Shown: positions 2,567 through 17,831 of the stretch, in pieces | Layout: every line of letters begins with the position of its first letter | How positions within the stretch are numbered: position 1 is the stretch's first letter | From: Escherichia coli O127:H6 str. E2348/69 | GTDB taxonomy: Bacteria; Pseudomonadota; Gammaproteobacteria; Enterobacterales; Enterobacteriaceae | Reading direction: 5' to 3' (one strand) | DNA length: 64,000 nucleotides | Assembly: GCF_000026545.1 (NCBI RefSeq) | Contig: NC_011601.1 | Made by a program: the position numbers and the translations under genes | The notes under the pieces: model-generated | Seen by the model: the letters and a program-made list of their open reading frames with translations, nothing else | What the model was told of the DNA's origin: nothing | Databases searched by the model: none

Positions 2567-4128
2567 CAGTGAAATACTACGCCATTCTGACTAATCAGGG
2601 CGCGGCACGACTGGCTAACGCGACGATGCTCGGCAGTAAGCTGAATCTGACGCAAATGGCCGTTGGTGATGCAAATGGTGTGTTACCAACACCAGACCCT
2701 GCACAAACAAAACTGATTAACCAGAAACGCATTGCACCGCTGAATCTTCTGAGTGTTGACCCTAACAATCAGAGCCAGATTATTGCGGAGCAAATCATCC
2801 CTGAAAACGAGGGAGGATTCTGGATCCGTGAGATTGGTCTTTATGATGATGAAGGTGTACTCATTGCGGTGGCAAACTGCCCGGAAACGTACAAACCGCA
2901 GTTGCAGGAAGGCAGTGGACGCACCCAGACTATCCGCATGATTCTGGTTGTCACGAACACCGAAGCCATCACGCTGAAAATCGACCCGTCTGTGGTTCTG
3001 GCAACCCGCAAATATGTGGATGATAAAATCTCAGAGCACGAACAGTCACGACGTCACCCGGACGCCTCGCTGACCGTAAAAGGTTTTACTCAGTTAAGCA
3101 GTGCAATTAACAGTGAATCAGAAACACTGGCCGCAACACCGAAAGCGGTTAAGGCTGCATATGACCTGGCTAACGGGAAATATACCGCCCAGAACGCCAC
3201 CACTACACAAAAAGGAATTGTTCAGCTCAGTAGCGCCACGAACAGCACGTCTGAAACGCTGGCAGCGACACCAAAAGCTGTTAAGGCGGTAATGGATGAA
3301 ACGAACAAGAAAGCACCATTAAACAGCCCGGCACTGACCGGAACGCCAACAACACCAACAGCGCCACAGGGGACTAATAGTACCCAGATCGCAAGCACGG
3401 CTTTCGTTATGGCCGCGATTGCCGCACTTGTAGATTCGTCACCTGATGCACTGAACACGCTGAACGAACTGGCTGCGGCGCTGGGCAATGACCCGAATTT
3501 TGCGACCACCATGACTAACGCGCTTGCGGGTAAGCAACCGAAGGATGCCACCCTGACGGCGCTGGCAGAGCTTGCTACATCAGCAGATAAACTCCCATAT
3601 TTTACAGGGGCAGATCGTGCCGCGTTAACCGCGTTGACAAGTGTTGGACGTGCCATTCTTGGTAAAACCAGCACTCAGGGAGTTCTTGATTACCTTGGTT
3701 TGGGGGAAGGCTCTGCACTGCCCGTTGGTGTGCCCGTTCCGTGGTCCTCAGCAACACCACCAACGGGCTGGCTGAAATGTAACGGTGCAGCATTTTCTTC
3801 TGAAATGTATCCCAGACTGGCAAGGGCTTATCCCACCAATAAATTACCGGATTTACGCGGTGAATTTATCCGTGGCTGGGATGATGGGCGCGGGATTGAT
3901 GCGGGACGTACCCTGCTTTCAGGGCAGGATGGTACAAGTTTTTCTCATTACGGAGGTAATTTCGACATTGGGTCTGGTCATTCAATCAATAACTATGACC
4001 AAATTGTTTCTAACCAACCAGGCTTTTCCCGTTTTTCATTTGCAGGGCCTTCACGAGGTGATGGGGTTAATTATGTAACCATTCGTCCTCGTAATATTAC
4101 GTTTAATTACATCGTAAGGGCAGCATGA
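2563..4128 (+). CDS. tail fiber protein, P2 gpH-like (constant N-terminal part fused to C-terminal cassette A)
   Basis: 521 aa ORF; internal duplicated SETLAATPKAVKA motif typical of tail fibers; C-terminal 140 aa begin with the GLGEGSALPVGVPVPW repeat shared with two other cassettes. Confidence 0.85.
   Translation: MTVKYYAILTNQGAARLANATMLGSKLNLTQMAVGDANGVLPTPDPAQTKLINQKRIAPLNLLSVDPNNQSQIIAEQIIPENEGGFWIREIGLYDDEGVLIAVANCPETYKPQLQEGSGRTQTIRMILVVTNTEAITLKIDPSVVLATRKYVDDKISEHEQSRRHPDASLTVKGFTQLSSAINSESETLAATPKAVKAAYDLANGKYTAQNATTTQKGIVQLSSATNSTSETLAATPKAVKAVMDETNKKAPLNSPALTGTPTTPTAPQGTNSTQIASTAFVMAAIAALVDSSPDALNTLNELAAALGNDPNFATTMTNALAGKQPKDATLTALAELATSADKLPYFTGADRAALTALTSVGRAILGKTSTQGVLDYLGLGEGSALPVGVPVPWSSATPPTGWLKCNGAAFSSEMYPRLARAYPTNKLPDLRGEFIRGWDDGRGIDAGRTLLSGQDGTSFSHYGGNFDIGSGHSINNYDQIVSNQPGFSRFSFAGPSRGDGVNYVTIRPRNITFNYIVRAA
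3685..3710 (+). promoter_or_regulatory. putative invertase crossover site A (hix/gix-like) at start of cassette A
   Basis: Sequence ...ccttggtttgggggaagg... marks start of ~225 bp repeat; weaker dyad than site B. Confidence 0.4.
3695..3920 (+). repeat. repeat copy A (~225 bp, direct) encoding conserved N-terminal 75 aa of tail-fiber C-terminal cassette
   Basis: Near-identical to 4134..4360 (direct) and reverse complement of 5475..5696. Confidence 0.85.
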
Positions 4129-4149
4129 AAACGTTGGTTTGGGGGAAGG
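4124..4149 (+). promoter_or_regulatory. putative invertase crossover site B (hix/gix-like)
   Basis: catGAAAACgtTGGTTTggggg resembles the AAACC..GGTTT dyad of Hin/Gin sites as recalled; sits exactly at repeat boundary. Confidence 0.45.
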
Positions 4150-4360
4150 CTCTGCACTGCCCGTTGGTGTGCCCGTTCCATGGCCCTCAGCCACGCCGCC
4201 AACGGGATGGCTGAAATGTAACGGCGCAGCATTTTCTTCTGAAAAGTACCCAAAACTGGCAAGGGCTTACCCCACCAATAAATTACCAGACTTACGCGGT
4301 GAATTTATCCGTGGCTGGGATGATGGGCGAGGAATTGATGCGGCACGCGCTTTATTGAGC
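4134..4360 (+). repeat. repeat copy B (direct relative to A)
   Basis: Sequence identity with copy A visible by eye over about 225 bp. Confidence 0.85.
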
Positions 4361-4615
4361 ATTCAAAACGGGATGTTGGAAAAACACCGCCATATTGTTG
4401 TAGCTAACGATGGATATGACACAAAGGATGAATGGGAGTTGGCCACGATTTTCAAAAAAACATATACGCAAGGCAGGGGGCTTGATGCCACAAATACAGG
4501 AGGGAGTTTGATTCCATCACCAACGCTTCATTCACGAGGAAGTATTGGTAACACAGGTGGTAGTGAAACCCGCCCCCGCAATATTGCATTTAACTATATC
4601 GTGAGGGCGGCTTAG
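4139..4615 (+). CDS. alternative tail-fiber C-terminal cassette B (promoterless, lacks fiber N-terminus)
   Basis: 158 aa ORF begins MGEGSALPVGVPVPW and ends PRNIAFNYIVRAA, same architecture as C-terminus of gpH. Confidence 0.6.
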   Translation: MGEGSALPVGVPVPWPSATPPTGWLKCNGAAFSSEKYPKLARAYPTNKLPDLRGEFIRGWDDGRGIDAARALLSIQNGMLEKHRHIVVANDGYDTKDEWELATIFKKTYTQGRGLDATNTGGSLIPSPTLHSRGSIGNTGGSETRPRNIAFNYIVRAA

Positions 4616-4621
4616 TTATAT

Positions 4622-5233
4622 TCAACTGGCTGCTGCCAGTGGTATTTCCGGCAAGTTGATATCTGGTGCCATGTTTATATCCATTGCGTTCAGCGCGTCT
4701 ATATAATCCAGCACGGCATTAAGCCGGGTGGTTTCTGCCTGCGTCAACTTCCGCCCGGCCTGCAACTTCAACTGAATCAGACTTATGGAAGCCATTGCCG
4801 CATCAGCCAGTGACTGGCGCTTGGTTTCTGCCGCTTCTACTGCAGCACGATGTTGTGCCTCAGTATCTGTCACCCATTTTTCACCATCCCATTTATCGTA
4901 TGGTGTTAACGGGGCGATAGTGGTTGTATTTTTCGGGTAGTCACCCAGCGCCGTGATTTCTTCGGTGTTTCCCGTGTCAGTGCTATAGACGGTTTCACCA
5001 CGATGGTCTGGCGCATACTCCCATGAGCTTAAATTCTCCGAACGGCGGATAGCATAGCCCGCTTTATGTGCGCCCGGGGCATCTAAACAGGAATTTGCCG
5101 GAATACCGACACCCACAGCAAGATATTCAGTTGATTCGGAAATATATTCCCGTGTCTCACCATCATAGTTATAAACGACGATGTTTCCTGCCTGTACGGC
5201 AATAAGGTCATCATTTAATATCGCGTTATTCAT
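4622..5233 (-). CDS. tail fiber assembly protein (Tfa/gpG-like chaperone)
   Basis: 203 aa ORF immediately downstream of cassette C on minus strand; size and position typical of Tfa. Confidence 0.65.
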   Translation of the reverse strand: MNNAILNDDLIAVQAGNIVVYNYDGETREYISESTEYLAVGVGIPANSCLDAPGAHKAGYAIRRSENLSSWEYAPDHRGETVYSTDTGNTEEITALGDYPKNTTTIAPLTPYDKWDGEKWVTDTEAQHRAAVEAAETKRQSLADAAMASISLIQLKLQAGRKLTQAETTRLNAVLDYIDALNAMDINMAPDINLPEIPLAAAS

Positions 5234-5700
5234 TATGCGGTTCTCACAATATAATTGAAGGCAATATTGCGTGGGTGGGTTTCATTCCCCTCTGAGGATT
5301 CCGTTCTGTATTGACTGGTAAATCTACCGTTAATTGCACCTTGCCGGACGGCGTTATCTGTCGACAACAGACTATCCCCTCCTTTGTCATTTGGCACCAA
5401 CACCGTGTTATCCCACGCATCCCATGACCGAATATTATGATAATGACTTCCTGTTAACCACCCCTGCATGCTTAAGATGCCCCTTCCGGCATCCACCCCG
5501 CGCCCATCATCCCAGCCACGGATAAATTCACCGCGTAAATCCGGTAATTTATTGGTGGGGTAGGCCTTTGCCAGTTTTGGGTACATTTCAGAAGAAAATG
5601 CTGCACCGTTACATTTCAGCCACCCTGCTGGCGGTGTGGCTGAGGGCCACGGAACAGGTACACCAACGGGCAGTGCAGAGCCTTCCCCCAAACCAACGTT
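5233..5700 (-). CDS. alternative tail-fiber C-terminal cassette C (inverted orientation)
   Basis: Minus-strand frame encodes GLGEGSALPVGVPVPW...PRNIAFNYIVRTA; the annotated Met upstream is probably not a real start. Confidence 0.6.
   Translation of the reverse strand, partial: NVGLGEGSALPVGVPVPWPSATPPAGWLKCNGAAFSSEMYPKLAKAYPTNKLPDLRGEFIRGWDDGRGVDAGRGILSMQGWLTGSHYHNIRSWDAWDNTVLVPNDKGGDSLLSTDNAVRQGAINGRFTSQYRTESSEGNETHPRNIAFNYIVRTA
5475..5696 (-). repeat. repeat copy C (inverted relative to A and B)
   Basis: Reverse complement of copies A/B. Confidence 0.85.
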
Positions 5701-5762: not shown

Positions 5763-6362
5763 ATGCAAATTGGCTATATTCGTGTGTCAACAAATGACCA
5801 GAACACGGATTTACAACGCAATGCACTGAACTGCGCAGGATGTGAACTGATTTTTGAAGATAAAATCAGCGGAACGAAATCAGCCAGACCGGGATTGAAA
5901 AAACTGCTCAGAACGCTATCAGAAGGAGATACGCTGGTTGTCTGGAAGCTGGACAGACTGGGCAGAAGTATGAAACACCTGATCACGCTTATTGAGGAAT
6001 TGCGGGAAAAAGGTGTTAATTTCCGTAGTCTGACGGACAGCATTGACACATCAACACCCATGGGGCGTTTCTTTTTTCACGTCATGGGGGCTTTAGCCGA
6101 AATGGAACGTGAATTAATTGTAGAGCGTACACTGGCCGGGCTGGCAGCAGCACGCGCACAAGGACGCATTGGCGGACGTCGCCCGAAGTTGACAAAAGAA
6201 CAACACGAGCAAATAGCGAGGCTGATTAAAAACGGTCATGACAGGAAACAACTGGCGATCATTTACGACATCGGCATATCGACGATTTATCGTTATCACC
6301 CTGTAGGCGATATACAGGCTGAAGAAACAACCAGGCAGACTCAGGAAAATAAAAACCGCTAA
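5763..6362 (+). CDS. serine DNA invertase, Gin/Pin/Cin/Hin family
   Basis: N-terminus MQIGYIRVSTNDQNTDLQRNAL and internal VVWKLDRLGRSMKHLI, SLTDSIDTSTPMGRFFFHVMGALAEMERELI match Gin/Hin as recalled; C-terminal HTH region. Confidence 0.9.
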   Translation: MQIGYIRVSTNDQNTDLQRNALNCAGCELIFEDKISGTKSARPGLKKLLRTLSEGDTLVVWKLDRLGRSMKHLITLIEELREKGVNFRSLTDSIDTSTPMGRFFFHVMGALAEMERELIVERTLAGLAAARAQGRIGGRRPKLTKEQHEQIARLIKNGHDRKQLAIIYDIGISTIYRYHPVGDIQAEETTRQTQENKNR

Positions 6363-12131: not shown

Positions 12132-13232
12132 ATGACCGATACCACCATGCAATTGCTCAGTCAGGGCACAGACCCCGTGAAAATGCCGGATTTTGATATT
12201 CTCGCGGAGGGTAAAACGCTGTCAGGCGTGGCAGAGCGCCTGATGAGCCTGTCACTGACCGACAACCGGGGATTTGAGGCGGACCAGCTCACCATCACGC
12301 TGGATGATGCGGATGGTCAGTTGCAGCTACCGCCACGGGGCGCGCGCCTGACGGTTCTCATTGGCTGGAAAGGAGAACCGCTGACAGAAAAAGGCACTTA
12401 CATTGTTGATGAAATCGCTCACGAAGGACCGCCGGACAGGCTGACTGTTTCAGCCAGAAGCGCAGATTTTCGGGATGAATTTAACGTTAAACGTGAGGTG
12501 TCCTGGCATGATGTGACCGTTGAGCGCGTGGTATCTGCCATCGCTCATCGGTACGGTCTGAAACCGCAAATCAGCGAAATACTGATGGATATCGAAATCG
12601 ACCACGCCGACCAGACCGAAGAAAGCGACATGTCCTTCCTTACGCGCATGGCGGAAATGCTGGGCGCAATCACCACGGTAAAAAGCGGTAATCTGTTATT
12701 CATCATGCCAGGCGGTCGCGTGAACGCACTGGGCCAGCCGTTGCCATCGTTCGCCATCACACGCAGCAGCGGCGATCGCCATCAGTTCCGCATTGCTGAC
12801 CGCGAGGCGTATACGGGTGTACGCGCCTACTGGCTTGATCTTAATTACGGGAAAAAGAAAAAAGTCAGCGTGAAACGCCGCAAACCGAAAAAAGAGAAAA
12901 GCAGCAGCCGTGAAGGTGACTATATGGAAGGTGCGGAAGGCAACGTGTTTGTGTTACGCAAAACTTATCAGAACGAGCAGGCAGCAAGACGCGCAGCGGC
13001 GGCAAAATGGCAGCAGCTACAACGCGGAGCCGCATCATTTTCCATCACGCTGGCACGTGGACGAGCAGAACTCTACCCCGAAATGCATGGCACGGTAACA
13101 GGATTTAAAAGCGAGATTGATAATCAGGACTGGATCATTGCAAAAGCCGAGCACACCATTGATAACAGTGGCTTTACCACGCAGCTTGAGCTTGAAGCCA
13201 AAATCCCGGAATGGATAGCAGAAACAGAGTAA
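12132..13232 (+). CDS. tail protein, P2 gpD-like
   Basis: About 366 aa from MTDTTMQLL; lysine-rich linker; precedes ogr as in P2. Confidence 0.75.
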   Translation: MTDTTMQLLSQGTDPVKMPDFDILAEGKTLSGVAERLMSLSLTDNRGFEADQLTITLDDADGQLQLPPRGARLTVLIGWKGEPLTEKGTYIVDEIAHEGPPDRLTVSARSADFRDEFNVKREVSWHDVTVERVVSAIAHRYGLKPQISEILMDIEIDHADQTEESDMSFLTRMAEMLGAITTVKSGNLLFIMPGGRVNALGQPLPSFAITRSSGDRHQFRIADREAYTGVRAYWLDLNYGKKKKVSVKRRKPKKEKSSSREGDYMEGAEGNVFVLRKTYQNEQAARRAAAAKWQQLQRGAASFSITLARGRAELYPEMHGTVTGFKSEIDNQDWIIAKAEHTIDNSGFTTQLELEAKIPEWIAETE

Positions 13233-13426
13233 ACAACTTAGATGCATTAGCCCTGACATTTGCTAACGCGCTTACAGCAAGAATCATAACCAATCTGACA
13301 GCCTACCCGGTGTCAAAATCAGAAGAGCCTTACATTAGAATATGTTAATTTGTAGCAAACAAATTTACACACAAATGATTACTGCTGAAATAGCCCCCAT
13401 AAATGCCATGTCAAAGGATCCATGTT

Positions 13427-14092
13427 ATGAATATGCAAATTTTTATCGCACCAGCAGCCACAGTTGCTGCAGTCTGCCTTGCTGCATATTTTGCTTTACG
13501 AAATGAACGTAAAAAGAAAGCACTTGAGATTAGAACAACTCAACTAGATCGAATATCTGAGCTAGTAAACCGAGCATCTACCAATTTGATGCAATATACA
13601 GGTACTCTTGCCTCTATACTGGAAGCGCACGCCAAAGATAATTATCTACCGAACAAAAAATTTGACATTAATGTAATTAGCAAATGGAAAGATTGCCTCG
13701 ATGAGAGTGAGGTCTGGGCGATTGATATACAGCAACTAAGAACATGTCAGCACAGTCTGGAGTTTCATCGTGAAAAAGAATGGGCTGAATGGAAAAAAAT
13801 AATTCCACCATTACTTGATAAAATTAACCAATTTTTTCTCATATCTAAGCCAGGGCAACCTGTTACGTTTATAAATGGCCAAAACAAAACAGCTGATGAA
13901 CTACTTGTTTTCTCAAGATATTTGAGAAAACAAACAGCAGAAATTGAATCAGTACGTCAGCTGTTACTTTCTCAAATGAGAGAGGAATTCATCGAGTTAA
14001 CTAGCTTTGAACCTGTCACAATGTTTAGCTTATTTAAATCAATAAAGAAAAATGTCATGCAATTTTTCTGTATCAGTGCTCTTAAAAATTGA
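13427..14092 (+). CDS. hypothetical membrane-anchored protein (N-terminal TM helix), AT-rich insert between D and ogr
   Basis: 229 aa ORF (13403..14092; likely start 13427 or 13433); hydrophobic N-terminus IFIAPAATVAAVCLAAYFAL then charged helical region; markedly lower GC than flanking phage genes. Confidence 0.55.
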   Translation: MNMQIFIAPAATVAAVCLAAYFALRNERKKKALEIRTTQLDRISELVNRASTNLMQYTGTLASILEAHAKDNYLPNKKFDINVISKWKDCLDESEVWAIDIQQLRTCQHSLEFHREKEWAEWKKIIPPLLDKINQFFLISKPGQPVTFINGQNKTADELLVFSRYLRKQTAEIESVRQLLLSQMREEFIELTSFEPVTMFSLFKSIKKNVMQFFCISALKN

Positions 14093-14241
14093 CGCTCTGT
14101 TGCAAGCAACCCCAGTGTTAAACTGGGGTTATTCTTGCTAAGAGACCTTTCTACGGCATCAGTAAACAAAACGAACTATCAGTTGGAGTCTGAGCAAGTT
14201 CAGCCTAAACTAGCGACAGCACTACGTTAAGGGAGGTCGCT

Positions 14242-14502
14242 ATGTTCCGTTGTCCGCTTTGTGGCGCATCTGCCCGTATCCGCACCAGTCGTCCGGAAAA
14301 TGATTCAAACACCGTGCGGCAAAAGTATTACCAGTGTAACAACCTGGAATGCGGCGTATGCTTCTCAACACTGGAAGCTTTCCATAAATTCACATCGAAA
14401 CACGCCTCCGGCATCCACTCTTCAGAAGGTATCCCGTGGCATGAGCTGCCAGCTTCACACAGGGGAAACAATCAGATGAGCTTGCCTTTACCTCAGAATT
14501 AA
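14242..14502 (+). CDS. ogr: late gene transcriptional activator, Ogr/Delta zinc-finger family
   Basis: N-terminus MFRCPLCGASARIRTSR...YYQCNNLECG with Cys-x2-Cys...Cys-x4-Cys pattern as in P2 Ogr; 86 aa, longer than the ~72 aa recalled for P2. Confidence 0.8.
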   Translation: MFRCPLCGASARIRTSRPENDSNTVRQKYYQCNNLECGVCFSTLEAFHKFTSKHASGIHSSEGIPWHELPASHRGNNQMSLPLPQN

Positions 14503-14562
14503 CAGGCAGAATTGCCGGAGTAACAAAAACGCGATAGATTACGCGCGGGTGCCTTTCGGCTG

Positions 14563-14775
14563 ATGGTCGGAGGGAATACCCGAAGGCCAGATGTGGAAAG
14601 GCCCCGGAAAACATCTCTGTTTAACCGAGGCCCTAACCGCATTACCTTGACAAGTGAAAGGTTAGCGCCTCTCCGGAAAAGGAGCAAGTGCTATGTCGCA
14701 AAAATCGCTTACGGCCATCACGTTCTGCGTGACGGCAATCCTCATCATCTGGATGTTGCACGGTTCGCTGTGTGA
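14563..14775 (+). CDS. mok-like overlapping reading frame of hok-family locus
   Basis: 70 aa ORF in different frame overlapping the hok-like ORF, as mok overlaps hok in plasmid R1. Confidence 0.4.
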   Translation: MVGGNTRRPDVERPRKTSLFNRGPNRITLTSERLAPLRKRSKCYVAKIAYGHHVLRDGNPHHLDVARFAV

Positions 14776-14833
14776 AATACGGATGAGCTTCTGGGGAGCG
14801 GAGTTTGCGGCGTTCTTACAGTGTAAGCAGTAA
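14693..14833 (+). CDS. Hok/Gef-family type I toxin (small membrane peptide)
   Basis: 46 aa: MSQKSLTAITFCVTAILIIWMLHGSLCEIRMSFWGAEFAAFLQCKQ; TM segment followed by SLCEIR and E(V/F)AAF motifs of Hok; good SD (aaaaggag) upstream. Confidence 0.75.
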   Translation: MSQKSLTAITFCVTAILIIWMLHGSLCEIRMSFWGAEFAAFLQCKQ

Positions 14834-14917
14834 GGAAACCGCGACGGGGGAGCAATCCCCCGTCAATCGGTTGCCAGGGTAAGGTCGATAAGGCACCCTA
14901 TCTCACAGACATGAACA

Positions 14918-14952
14918 ACAAACCCGCAGCATAAAAACTGCGGGTTTTCTTT
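14918..14952 (+). terminator. rho-independent terminator downstream of hok-like gene
   Basis: aaacccgcagcataaaaactgcgggttttcttttt hairpin plus T-tract. Confidence 0.6.
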
Positions 14953-15099
14953 TTGGTGTCCTCACCGACTTGAAACAGTGATCAGACTATAAGACAAAGC
15001 CCACAATGTAGCGGGCTTACTCCCCTCCCCCCACTAAATGTGGACGCATCGTGGAACGAAGAGATATAAAACATTATAAATCAATTAGTTATTGAAAGA

Positions 15100-15132
15100 A
15101 AAAAGGCCGCAGAGCGGCCTTTTTAGTTAGAT
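15100..15132 (-). terminator. rho-independent terminator of pheST-ihfA operon
   Basis: aaaaaggccgctctgcggccttttttc on minus strand just after ihfA stop. Confidence 0.7.
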
Positions 15133-15136
15133 CAGA

Positions 15137-15436
15137 TTACTCGTCTTTGGGCGAAGCGTTTTCGACCCGGCTTTTTAACTTCTGCCCGGGTCTGAAGGTC
15201 ACCACGCGCCGTGCTGTAATGGGAATATCCTCGCCCGTTTTCGGGTTACGTCCCGGGCGTTGATTCTTATCACGCAGATCGAAGTTACCAAAACCAGAGA
15301 GTTTCACCTGTTCGCCGTTTTCCAGAGCGCGACGGATCTCTTCGAAAAACAGTTCAACCAGTTCTTTGGCATCCCGCTTGCTAAGCCCAAGCTTATCAAA
15401 CAGATATTCTGACATTTCAGCTTTTGTAAGCGCCAT
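15137..15436 (-). CDS. ihfA: integration host factor alpha subunit
   Basis: 99 aa [33 protein letters not shown]... matches IHF-alpha. Confidence 0.95.
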
Positions 15437-15440
15437 AGGT

Positions 15441-17831
<2,391 letters not shown>

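Follow-up and report, generated by a model that had tools for sequence, protein, structure and literature searches.

The ogr-proximal end of a P2-like prophage at the ihfA terminator of Escherichia coli E2348/69

Where, between ogr and ihfA, does the phage DNA end in the chromosome of Escherichia coli O127:H6 str. E2348/69, and at which sequence was it integrated? The question concerns positions 14503-15136 of a 64,000-nucleotide stretch of contig NC_011601.1, referred to below as the window. The initial annotation of the window recognised a prophage-host junction here and placed the insertion between ihfA and btuC, while the attachment site was considered not identifiable by eye.

Bases 14200-15500 are 100% identical to the E2348/69 chromosome, in which, according to the RefSeq annotation, a 36.5-kb P2-like prophage splits ihfA from btuC. 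The region 14503-15136 is almost certainly the ogr-proximal junction (attR) of this prophage, formed by tyrosine-integrase recombination at a 25-bp core that is itself the ihfA terminator.

In the orientation of the window the prophage genes run from tail and baseplate through gpD and a hypothetical ORF to ogr and hok, and are followed by the host genes ihfA, pheT and pheS. The remaining prophage genes are found outside the window, on its left side: capsid, terminase, an IetAS-like pair, ParM-like, replication, Cox-like, C repressor and int genes and a 131-aa ORF, with the far end adjoining btuC. Coordinates marked L001 refer to these outside parts and those marked L002 to the K-12 locus. The gene ogr (14242-14502, plus strand; Pfam Ogr_Delta, E=5e-14; Ogr/Delta-like zinc finger protein in RefSeq) is the late-gene activator and the last conserved gene of the P2 late region, and ihfA, which encodes integration host factor alpha, is the first host gene (15137-15436, minus strand).

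The breakpoint and the attachment core

In K-12 the genes ihfA and btuC are adjacent, with a spacer of 100 bp, in line with the initial annotation. Alignment to prophage-free genomes, which had been proposed as a check, gives a clear break in colinearity: such genomes, including K-12, match the window from 15095 rightwards only, that is from 42 bp before the ihfA stop codon. This breakpoint corresponds to query position 896 in one genome comparison and to position 134 in the junction search. Colinearity running on through hok to ogr, which would have made hok host DNA, is not seen, and hok falls on the prophage side.

The view that the late region ends with ogr and that host sequence resumes at ihfA thus holds for the genes, as ogr ends at 14502 and ihfA is the first host gene, but not for the prophage, which ends at 15119. 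It extends 617 bp past ogr and includes hok/sok, a terminator, an attP arm and the core. The prophage boundary is now exact: 15119, or 15094, according to which copy of the core is credited to the phage.

The core was found inside the very interval where no attachment site had been discerned. At 15095-15119 lies the attR copy of AAAGAAAAAAGGCCGCAGAGCGGCC, an exact direct repeat of 25 bp with its partner at the other breakpoint. An exact search places this second copy at L001 40060-40084, outside the window, 36,459 bp to the left and 58 bp upstream of btuC; K-12 contains a single copy (L002 3001-3025). When the empty K-12 site is aligned to both prophage ends of E2348/69, AAAGAAAAAAGGCCGCAGAGCGGCC is the sole sequence that all have in common. 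The two prophage ends and the empty site, which has it once, therefore carry an identical core (25 of 25 positions), and the same is true in SE11. As the copies are identical at all 25 positions and lie exactly at both breakpoints, a chance repeat can be excluded. The junction at 15095, the empty site of K-12 and the repeat beside btuC all bear out the placement of the prophage in the ihfA-btuC interval.

Directly to the left of the core the bases are of the phage version (TTATTG) at the ihfA-side junction and of the host version (CAGTGA) at the btuC side. From this we infer that the exact point of strand exchange lies inside the 25 bp.

The core falls in the intrinsic terminator of ihfA (15095-15124, minus strand), which on the ihfA strand consists of GGCCGC-UCU-GCGGCC followed by UUUUUUCUUU and folds with -17.7 kcal/mol (z=-4.95). 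On this strand the core reads GGCCGCUCUGCGGCC-UUUUUUCUUU, i.e. the hairpin and the U-run, starting 17 nt past the ihfA stop codon. The terminator scan did not list it, while folding showed the hairpin clearly; probably the scan missed it as the extension of the stem consumed the flanking A and T runs. No tRNA or tmRNA gene is found in 13000-16000 (ARAGORN), in agreement with the initial annotation, and the site does not follow the 186-type pattern of tRNA targeting: the core is the ihfA terminator.

The same strand also matches the Rfam model STnc540, an enterobacterial sRNA candidate at the ihfA 3' end, over 15051-15195 (minus strand), scoring 41.3 bits, above the gathering score of 38. The hairpin of the att core is the terminator of this match; in the lysogen, phage DNA stands in place of the portion of the model past the terminator.

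Integration almost certainly took the following course. The attP core of the phage (25 bp) recombined, by means of a tyrosine integrase, with the identical host sequence in the ihfA-btuC spacer, the host target being the hairpin and T-run of the rho-independent terminator of ihfA. Duplication of the core restored the ihfA terminator and left the second copy downstream of int-orf131, before the unchanged 58 bp that precede btuC. Between ogr and the host sequence, in this order, the phage DNA comprises the hok/sok module with its terminator, a hairpin, two predicted arm-type Int sites, a predicted IHF site and the core.

What does such an insertion mean for the neighbouring genes? The whole hairpin and U-run are within the duplicated core, so ihfA retains a complete terminator. 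On the other side, the core copy follows int-orf131, and the btuC leader after it (58 bp) is unaltered. With the terminator complete and the leader unaltered, integration presumably does little harm to either flanking gene. The locus is a further case of P2-type integrases that use intergenic intrinsic terminators and leave the flanking genes intact. A highly speculative extension, to which we give very little weight, is that targeting of the ihfA terminator ties the expression of IHF alpha, the 3'UTR-derived sRNA or btuCED to the state of the prophage, and that the int/att module is an uncharacterised specificity of possible use as an orthogonal integration tool. The link to IHF alpha, the sRNA and btuCED is proposed because the core overlaps the STnc540 terminator and IHF consensus sites are present on both arms.

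Cargo and attP arm between ogr and ihfA

The first part of the region past ogr is a putative hok/sok locus on the plus strand. A hok mRNA leader with the sok antisense region is predicted at 14547-14706, where the Rfam sok model RF01794 scores 48.4 bits (E=1.8e-9), below its gathering score of 59. It is followed by a hok-family toxin gene of 46 aa (14693-14833), with a match above the cut-off to Pfam HOK_GEF (E=4e-7) and a match to PHROG 251, 'MokW-like host killing' (E=1e-22). A mok-like ORF taken from the ORF list (14563-14775) overlaps hok. The ogr-hok module is closed by an intrinsic terminator at 14920-14957, found by the terminator scan and folding with -22.5 kcal/mol (z=-5.2).

Several hok loci are located outside prophages in E. 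coli chromosomes, and the initial annotation left it possible that this one, too, is resident host DNA. In that case the prophage would end at ogr and the core would lie between ogr and hok. Several observations speak against this. In none of the 5,118 genomes with an empty site does the 100-bp spacer from ihfA to btuC hold a hok locus; colinearity with prophage-free genomes starts only at 15095; and the direct repeat is situated to the right of hok. Further, bases 14503-14961 recur with 94-98% identity in isolated P2-like phages, namely Chuche, P88, PhiR44_2, P884B11, 500465-2 and Shae_phiSM; in the first five hok is a neighbour of ogr, and in Chuche it is flanked by ogr on one side and the attP/int region on the other. 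The ogr-hok pair is also found at other chromosomal positions in other E. coli genomes. A resident origin is thus scarcely conceivable, and hok/sok (14503-14961) is phage cargo and not host DNA.

The similarity to P2-like phages and prophages with other att sites stops at 14898-14965, at or just past the terminator at 14920-14957. This strong terminator separates the late/cargo module from the att-int module.

In its general build the locus resembles the hok/sok loci of plasmid R1 and the MokW-like loci of phages: a Hok-family ORF overlapped by a mok-like ORF, and a leader with a match to the sok model. It differs from them in its setting, a P2-like phage that carries it between ogr and attP, and it is to be regarded as putative, the sok score being under the gathering threshold. 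In addition, many Stx2a-converting lambdoid phages and a 212-kb EDL933 record contain hok loci that share about 82% identity with the one at 14524-14898, which indicates that the same toxin-antitoxin cassette circulates among unrelated phage types.

The second part of the region (14962-15094) is the attP arm. Upstream of the arm sites it contains a hairpin, AAGCCCAC-AATGTA-GCGGGCTT (14997-15018), which folds weakly (z=-2.6) and occupies the place that the ogr terminator has in P2 and WPhi. The P arm itself (15037-15057, plus strand) consists of two predicted arm-type integrase repeats, AATGTGGACG at about 15037 and ATCGTGGAAC at about 15048, which are 11 bp apart and were identified by the arm-site consensus of P2-type integrases, tgTGGaCa (PMC3448106). 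Next, 3 bp from the core, follows a predicted IHF site, AATCAATTAGTTA (15079-15091, plus strand), by match to the consensus WATCAANNNNTTR, which occurs only twice in the 64-kb window.

Past the btuC-side core, outside the window, the IHF consensus is matched at +16 and +35, and the P' arm repeats TGTGGTC (+90) and TGTGGAT (+101) are again 11 bp apart. Paired arm repeats are thus present on both sides of the core, at 15039 and 15050 on the ihfA side in the spacing comparison, and an IHF site, by sequence match, separates the P arm from the core. The SE11 copy, which has diverged, keeps the GTGGA of each repeat and, of the IHF site, the positions ATCAA....TTA, while the N positions and other neighbouring bases vary. 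By analogy with P2-type att sites, Int and IHF would be expected to bind these motifs.

A contiguous attP of the ihfA type is absent from the phage collection, where the reconstructed attP finds a match in its hok part only. Nor is one seen, as a tandem lysogen or an excised form, among the 307 arm-carrying genomes of the complete E. coli set. The attP was therefore reconstructed from attL and attR.

In the curated record of P2 (NC_001895) the order is ogr terminator, Int P arm, IHF site, core, Cox region, Int P' arm and int. The E2348/69 prophage shares with it the order ogr, attP, int, and within attP the terminator or hairpin, an arm pair 11 bp apart with the TGTGG motif, IHF, core and a second arm pair. 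Even the distances are similar: from P arm to core 59 bp in P2 against 56 bp here, and from core to P' arm +89 against +90. Both have a Cox-like excisionase and a C-type repressor, and both integrate at an intergenic position and not in a tRNA gene. However, the core of P2 is AAAAAATAAGCCCGTGTAAGGGAGATT, at MG1655 position 2,165,238, whereas the E2348/69 prophage uses the ihfA terminator. It further differs from P2 by extra cargo flanking attP, hok/sok at the ogr side and orf131 at the int side, and by IHF consensus sites on both sides of the core.

WPhi, which has the closest characterised integrase, likewise has in its attP a G+C hairpin and then a T-run between arm pairs, with the 11-bp spacing. 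Its core and its attB (MG1655 position 4,104,392) are different, and it is without hok cargo.

The integrase and the state of the prophage

The integrase gene is outside the window, at the far end of the prophage and about 500 bp from attL. It encodes 324 aa with the Pfam domains Int_N and Phage_integrase, so that a P2-type tyrosine integrase adjoins the att site. Over its full length the protein is 49% identical to the Int of WPhi, with box I, box II and the tyrosine (RHR-Y) motifs conserved; the identity to P2 Int is about 48%, and the best integrase match in the phage collection reaches 56%. Since the identity to this collection is at most 56%, and the attP is absent from both phages and genomes, the integrase represents a distinct specificity type that is known from prophages only. 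The far end also contains a Cox-like gene (phrog_575, E=1e-7). An experimental study of the integrase of the ihfA site was not found in the literature searched.

Between int and attL lies an ORF of 131 aa (L001 39558-39953; phrog_14142), and SE11 has two different ORFs there. The position of this ORF fits the int-att cargo hotspot of a 2026 preprint on P2/P4 defence hotspots.

Could the prophage nevertheless have used another core? The initial annotation saw no convincing match to the P2 attP core, rightly, as AAAGAAAAAAGGCCGCAGAGCGGCC is unlike that core, and named gcgggcttactcccc near 15010 as the nearest resemblance. If this were the core, an integrase of P2 specificity would have acted at a secondary site. 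In favour of this, the reverse complement of the P2 core and gcgggcttactcccc have the 8-mer CGGGCTTA in common, but an 8-mer is shared with the P2 core at 36 positions of the window, which is about chance level. Moreover, gcgggcttactcccc, which had been suggested as a search string for the other prophage end, is absent from there and from the empty site, and an Int that is only 48-49% identical to those of P2 and WPhi does not suggest P2 specificity. We regard a secondary P2 site as extremely improbable. The true core is located about 85 bp further to the right, in the ihfA terminator.

More credible, though still unlikely, is that the prophage is a fixed, defective remnant which has lost excision, with the junction being a fossil and not a working attR. 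An ash-family pseudogene is present in the early region, so that the prophage may not be fully viable, there is no attP form or tandem lysogen in 5,426 genomes, and the int-att module occurs in no isolated phage of the collection. Against this stand the two cores, still identical at 25 of 25 positions, and the annotation, in which all late genes and the replication genes, along with int, the C repressor and the Cox-like gene, are intact. The invertible tail-fibre segment is still switching between two assemblies of one strain. Last, the same type of element is found in 297 genomes of diverse lineages with arms of 94-100% identity, which suggests repeated acquisition.

As for gcgggcttactcccc itself (15011), it is the 3' half of the hairpin at 14997-15018 together with a C-rich run; its resemblance to the P2 core is at chance level, and the hairpin that contains it is not the core.

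Occupancy of the site and variable segments

How common is this insertion? Among 5,426 complete E. coli genomes the ihfA-btuC site is empty in 5,118, where the K-12 query across the empty site matches throughout, and 297 have the same junction of phage arm, core and ihfA as the window. In occupied genomes the K-12 query splits into 1-126 and 103-221, and the 24-bp overlap (103-126) is within the core. About 5% of complete E. coli genomes thus have a P2-like prophage here, including E2348/69, SE11, O26:H11 11368 and O55:H7 CB9615. The 297 occupied genomes belong to diverse lineages and their arms have diverged (94-100% identity); this suggests that prophages of the ihfA site have been acquired repeatedly.

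The site is not new. The SE11 genome paper (Oshima et al. 2008; PMC2608844) lists a 35.8-kb P2-like prophage, PP_SE11-4, located 'between btuC and ihfA', for which a duplication of 25 nt is given; its published boundaries coincide with the identical 25-bp core. PP_SE11-4 has the same site, an identical core and an identical Hok protein as the E2348/69 prophage; it differs in arms that are about 94% identical and in other cargo in the int-att, D-ogr and tin/old slots.

Besides the SE11 genome paper, no paper naming the ihfA-btuC site was found in the literature searched. Four E. coli sites have been characterised experimentally (P2, WPhi, PhiD145/D160 and 186), all of them at other coordinates. 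The 2026 preprint, which also describes the int-att cargo hotspot, delimited att sites for thousands of P2-like prophages at 30 genomic spots in E. coli. The ihfA-btuC site and its 25-nt duplication have accordingly been known since 2008; the feature is an ordinary one and current understanding is unchanged. What is added here are the exact coordinates, the recognition that core and ihfA terminator coincide, the attribution of hok to the phage, the P2-like layout of the arms and the occupancy figures.

Several other segments of the prophage vary or carry cargo. A tail-fibre segment of 1,928 bp (3732-5659) is exactly inverted in the window relative to another E2348/69 assembly, NZ_CP059840.2, and the remainder of the 18.7-kb overlap with this assembly is identical. 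The inverted segment adjoins a gene for a 'recombinase family protein' (invertase) at about 5763-6362. One strain thus shows both orientations, one in each assembly, and an active host-range switch of the Cin/Gin type seems to be at work.

The slot between gpD and ogr (13233-14241) is AT-rich, with 38% G+C against 54% in the late genes. It contains an ORF of 221 aa (13427-14092, plus strand) that has no match in Pfam, PHROG or PADLOC. In SE11 the same slot is taken by a different gene, of 384 aa and on the opposite strand. The slot thus takes variable cargo, in this prophage an orphan gene.

Between the replication and portal genes, at the tin/old position of P2, lies a pair of genes for an S8 peptidase and an AAA ATPase (L001 27943-31226). 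The pair matches IetS (E = 7e-41) and IetA (4e-89) in PADLOC, and is on these matches a predicted prophage-borne anti-phage defence system of the IetAS type. Further, ParM-like and 'plasmid partitioning/stability' genes adjoin the replication gene (L001 31605-32880), which is unusual in an integrating P2-like phage.
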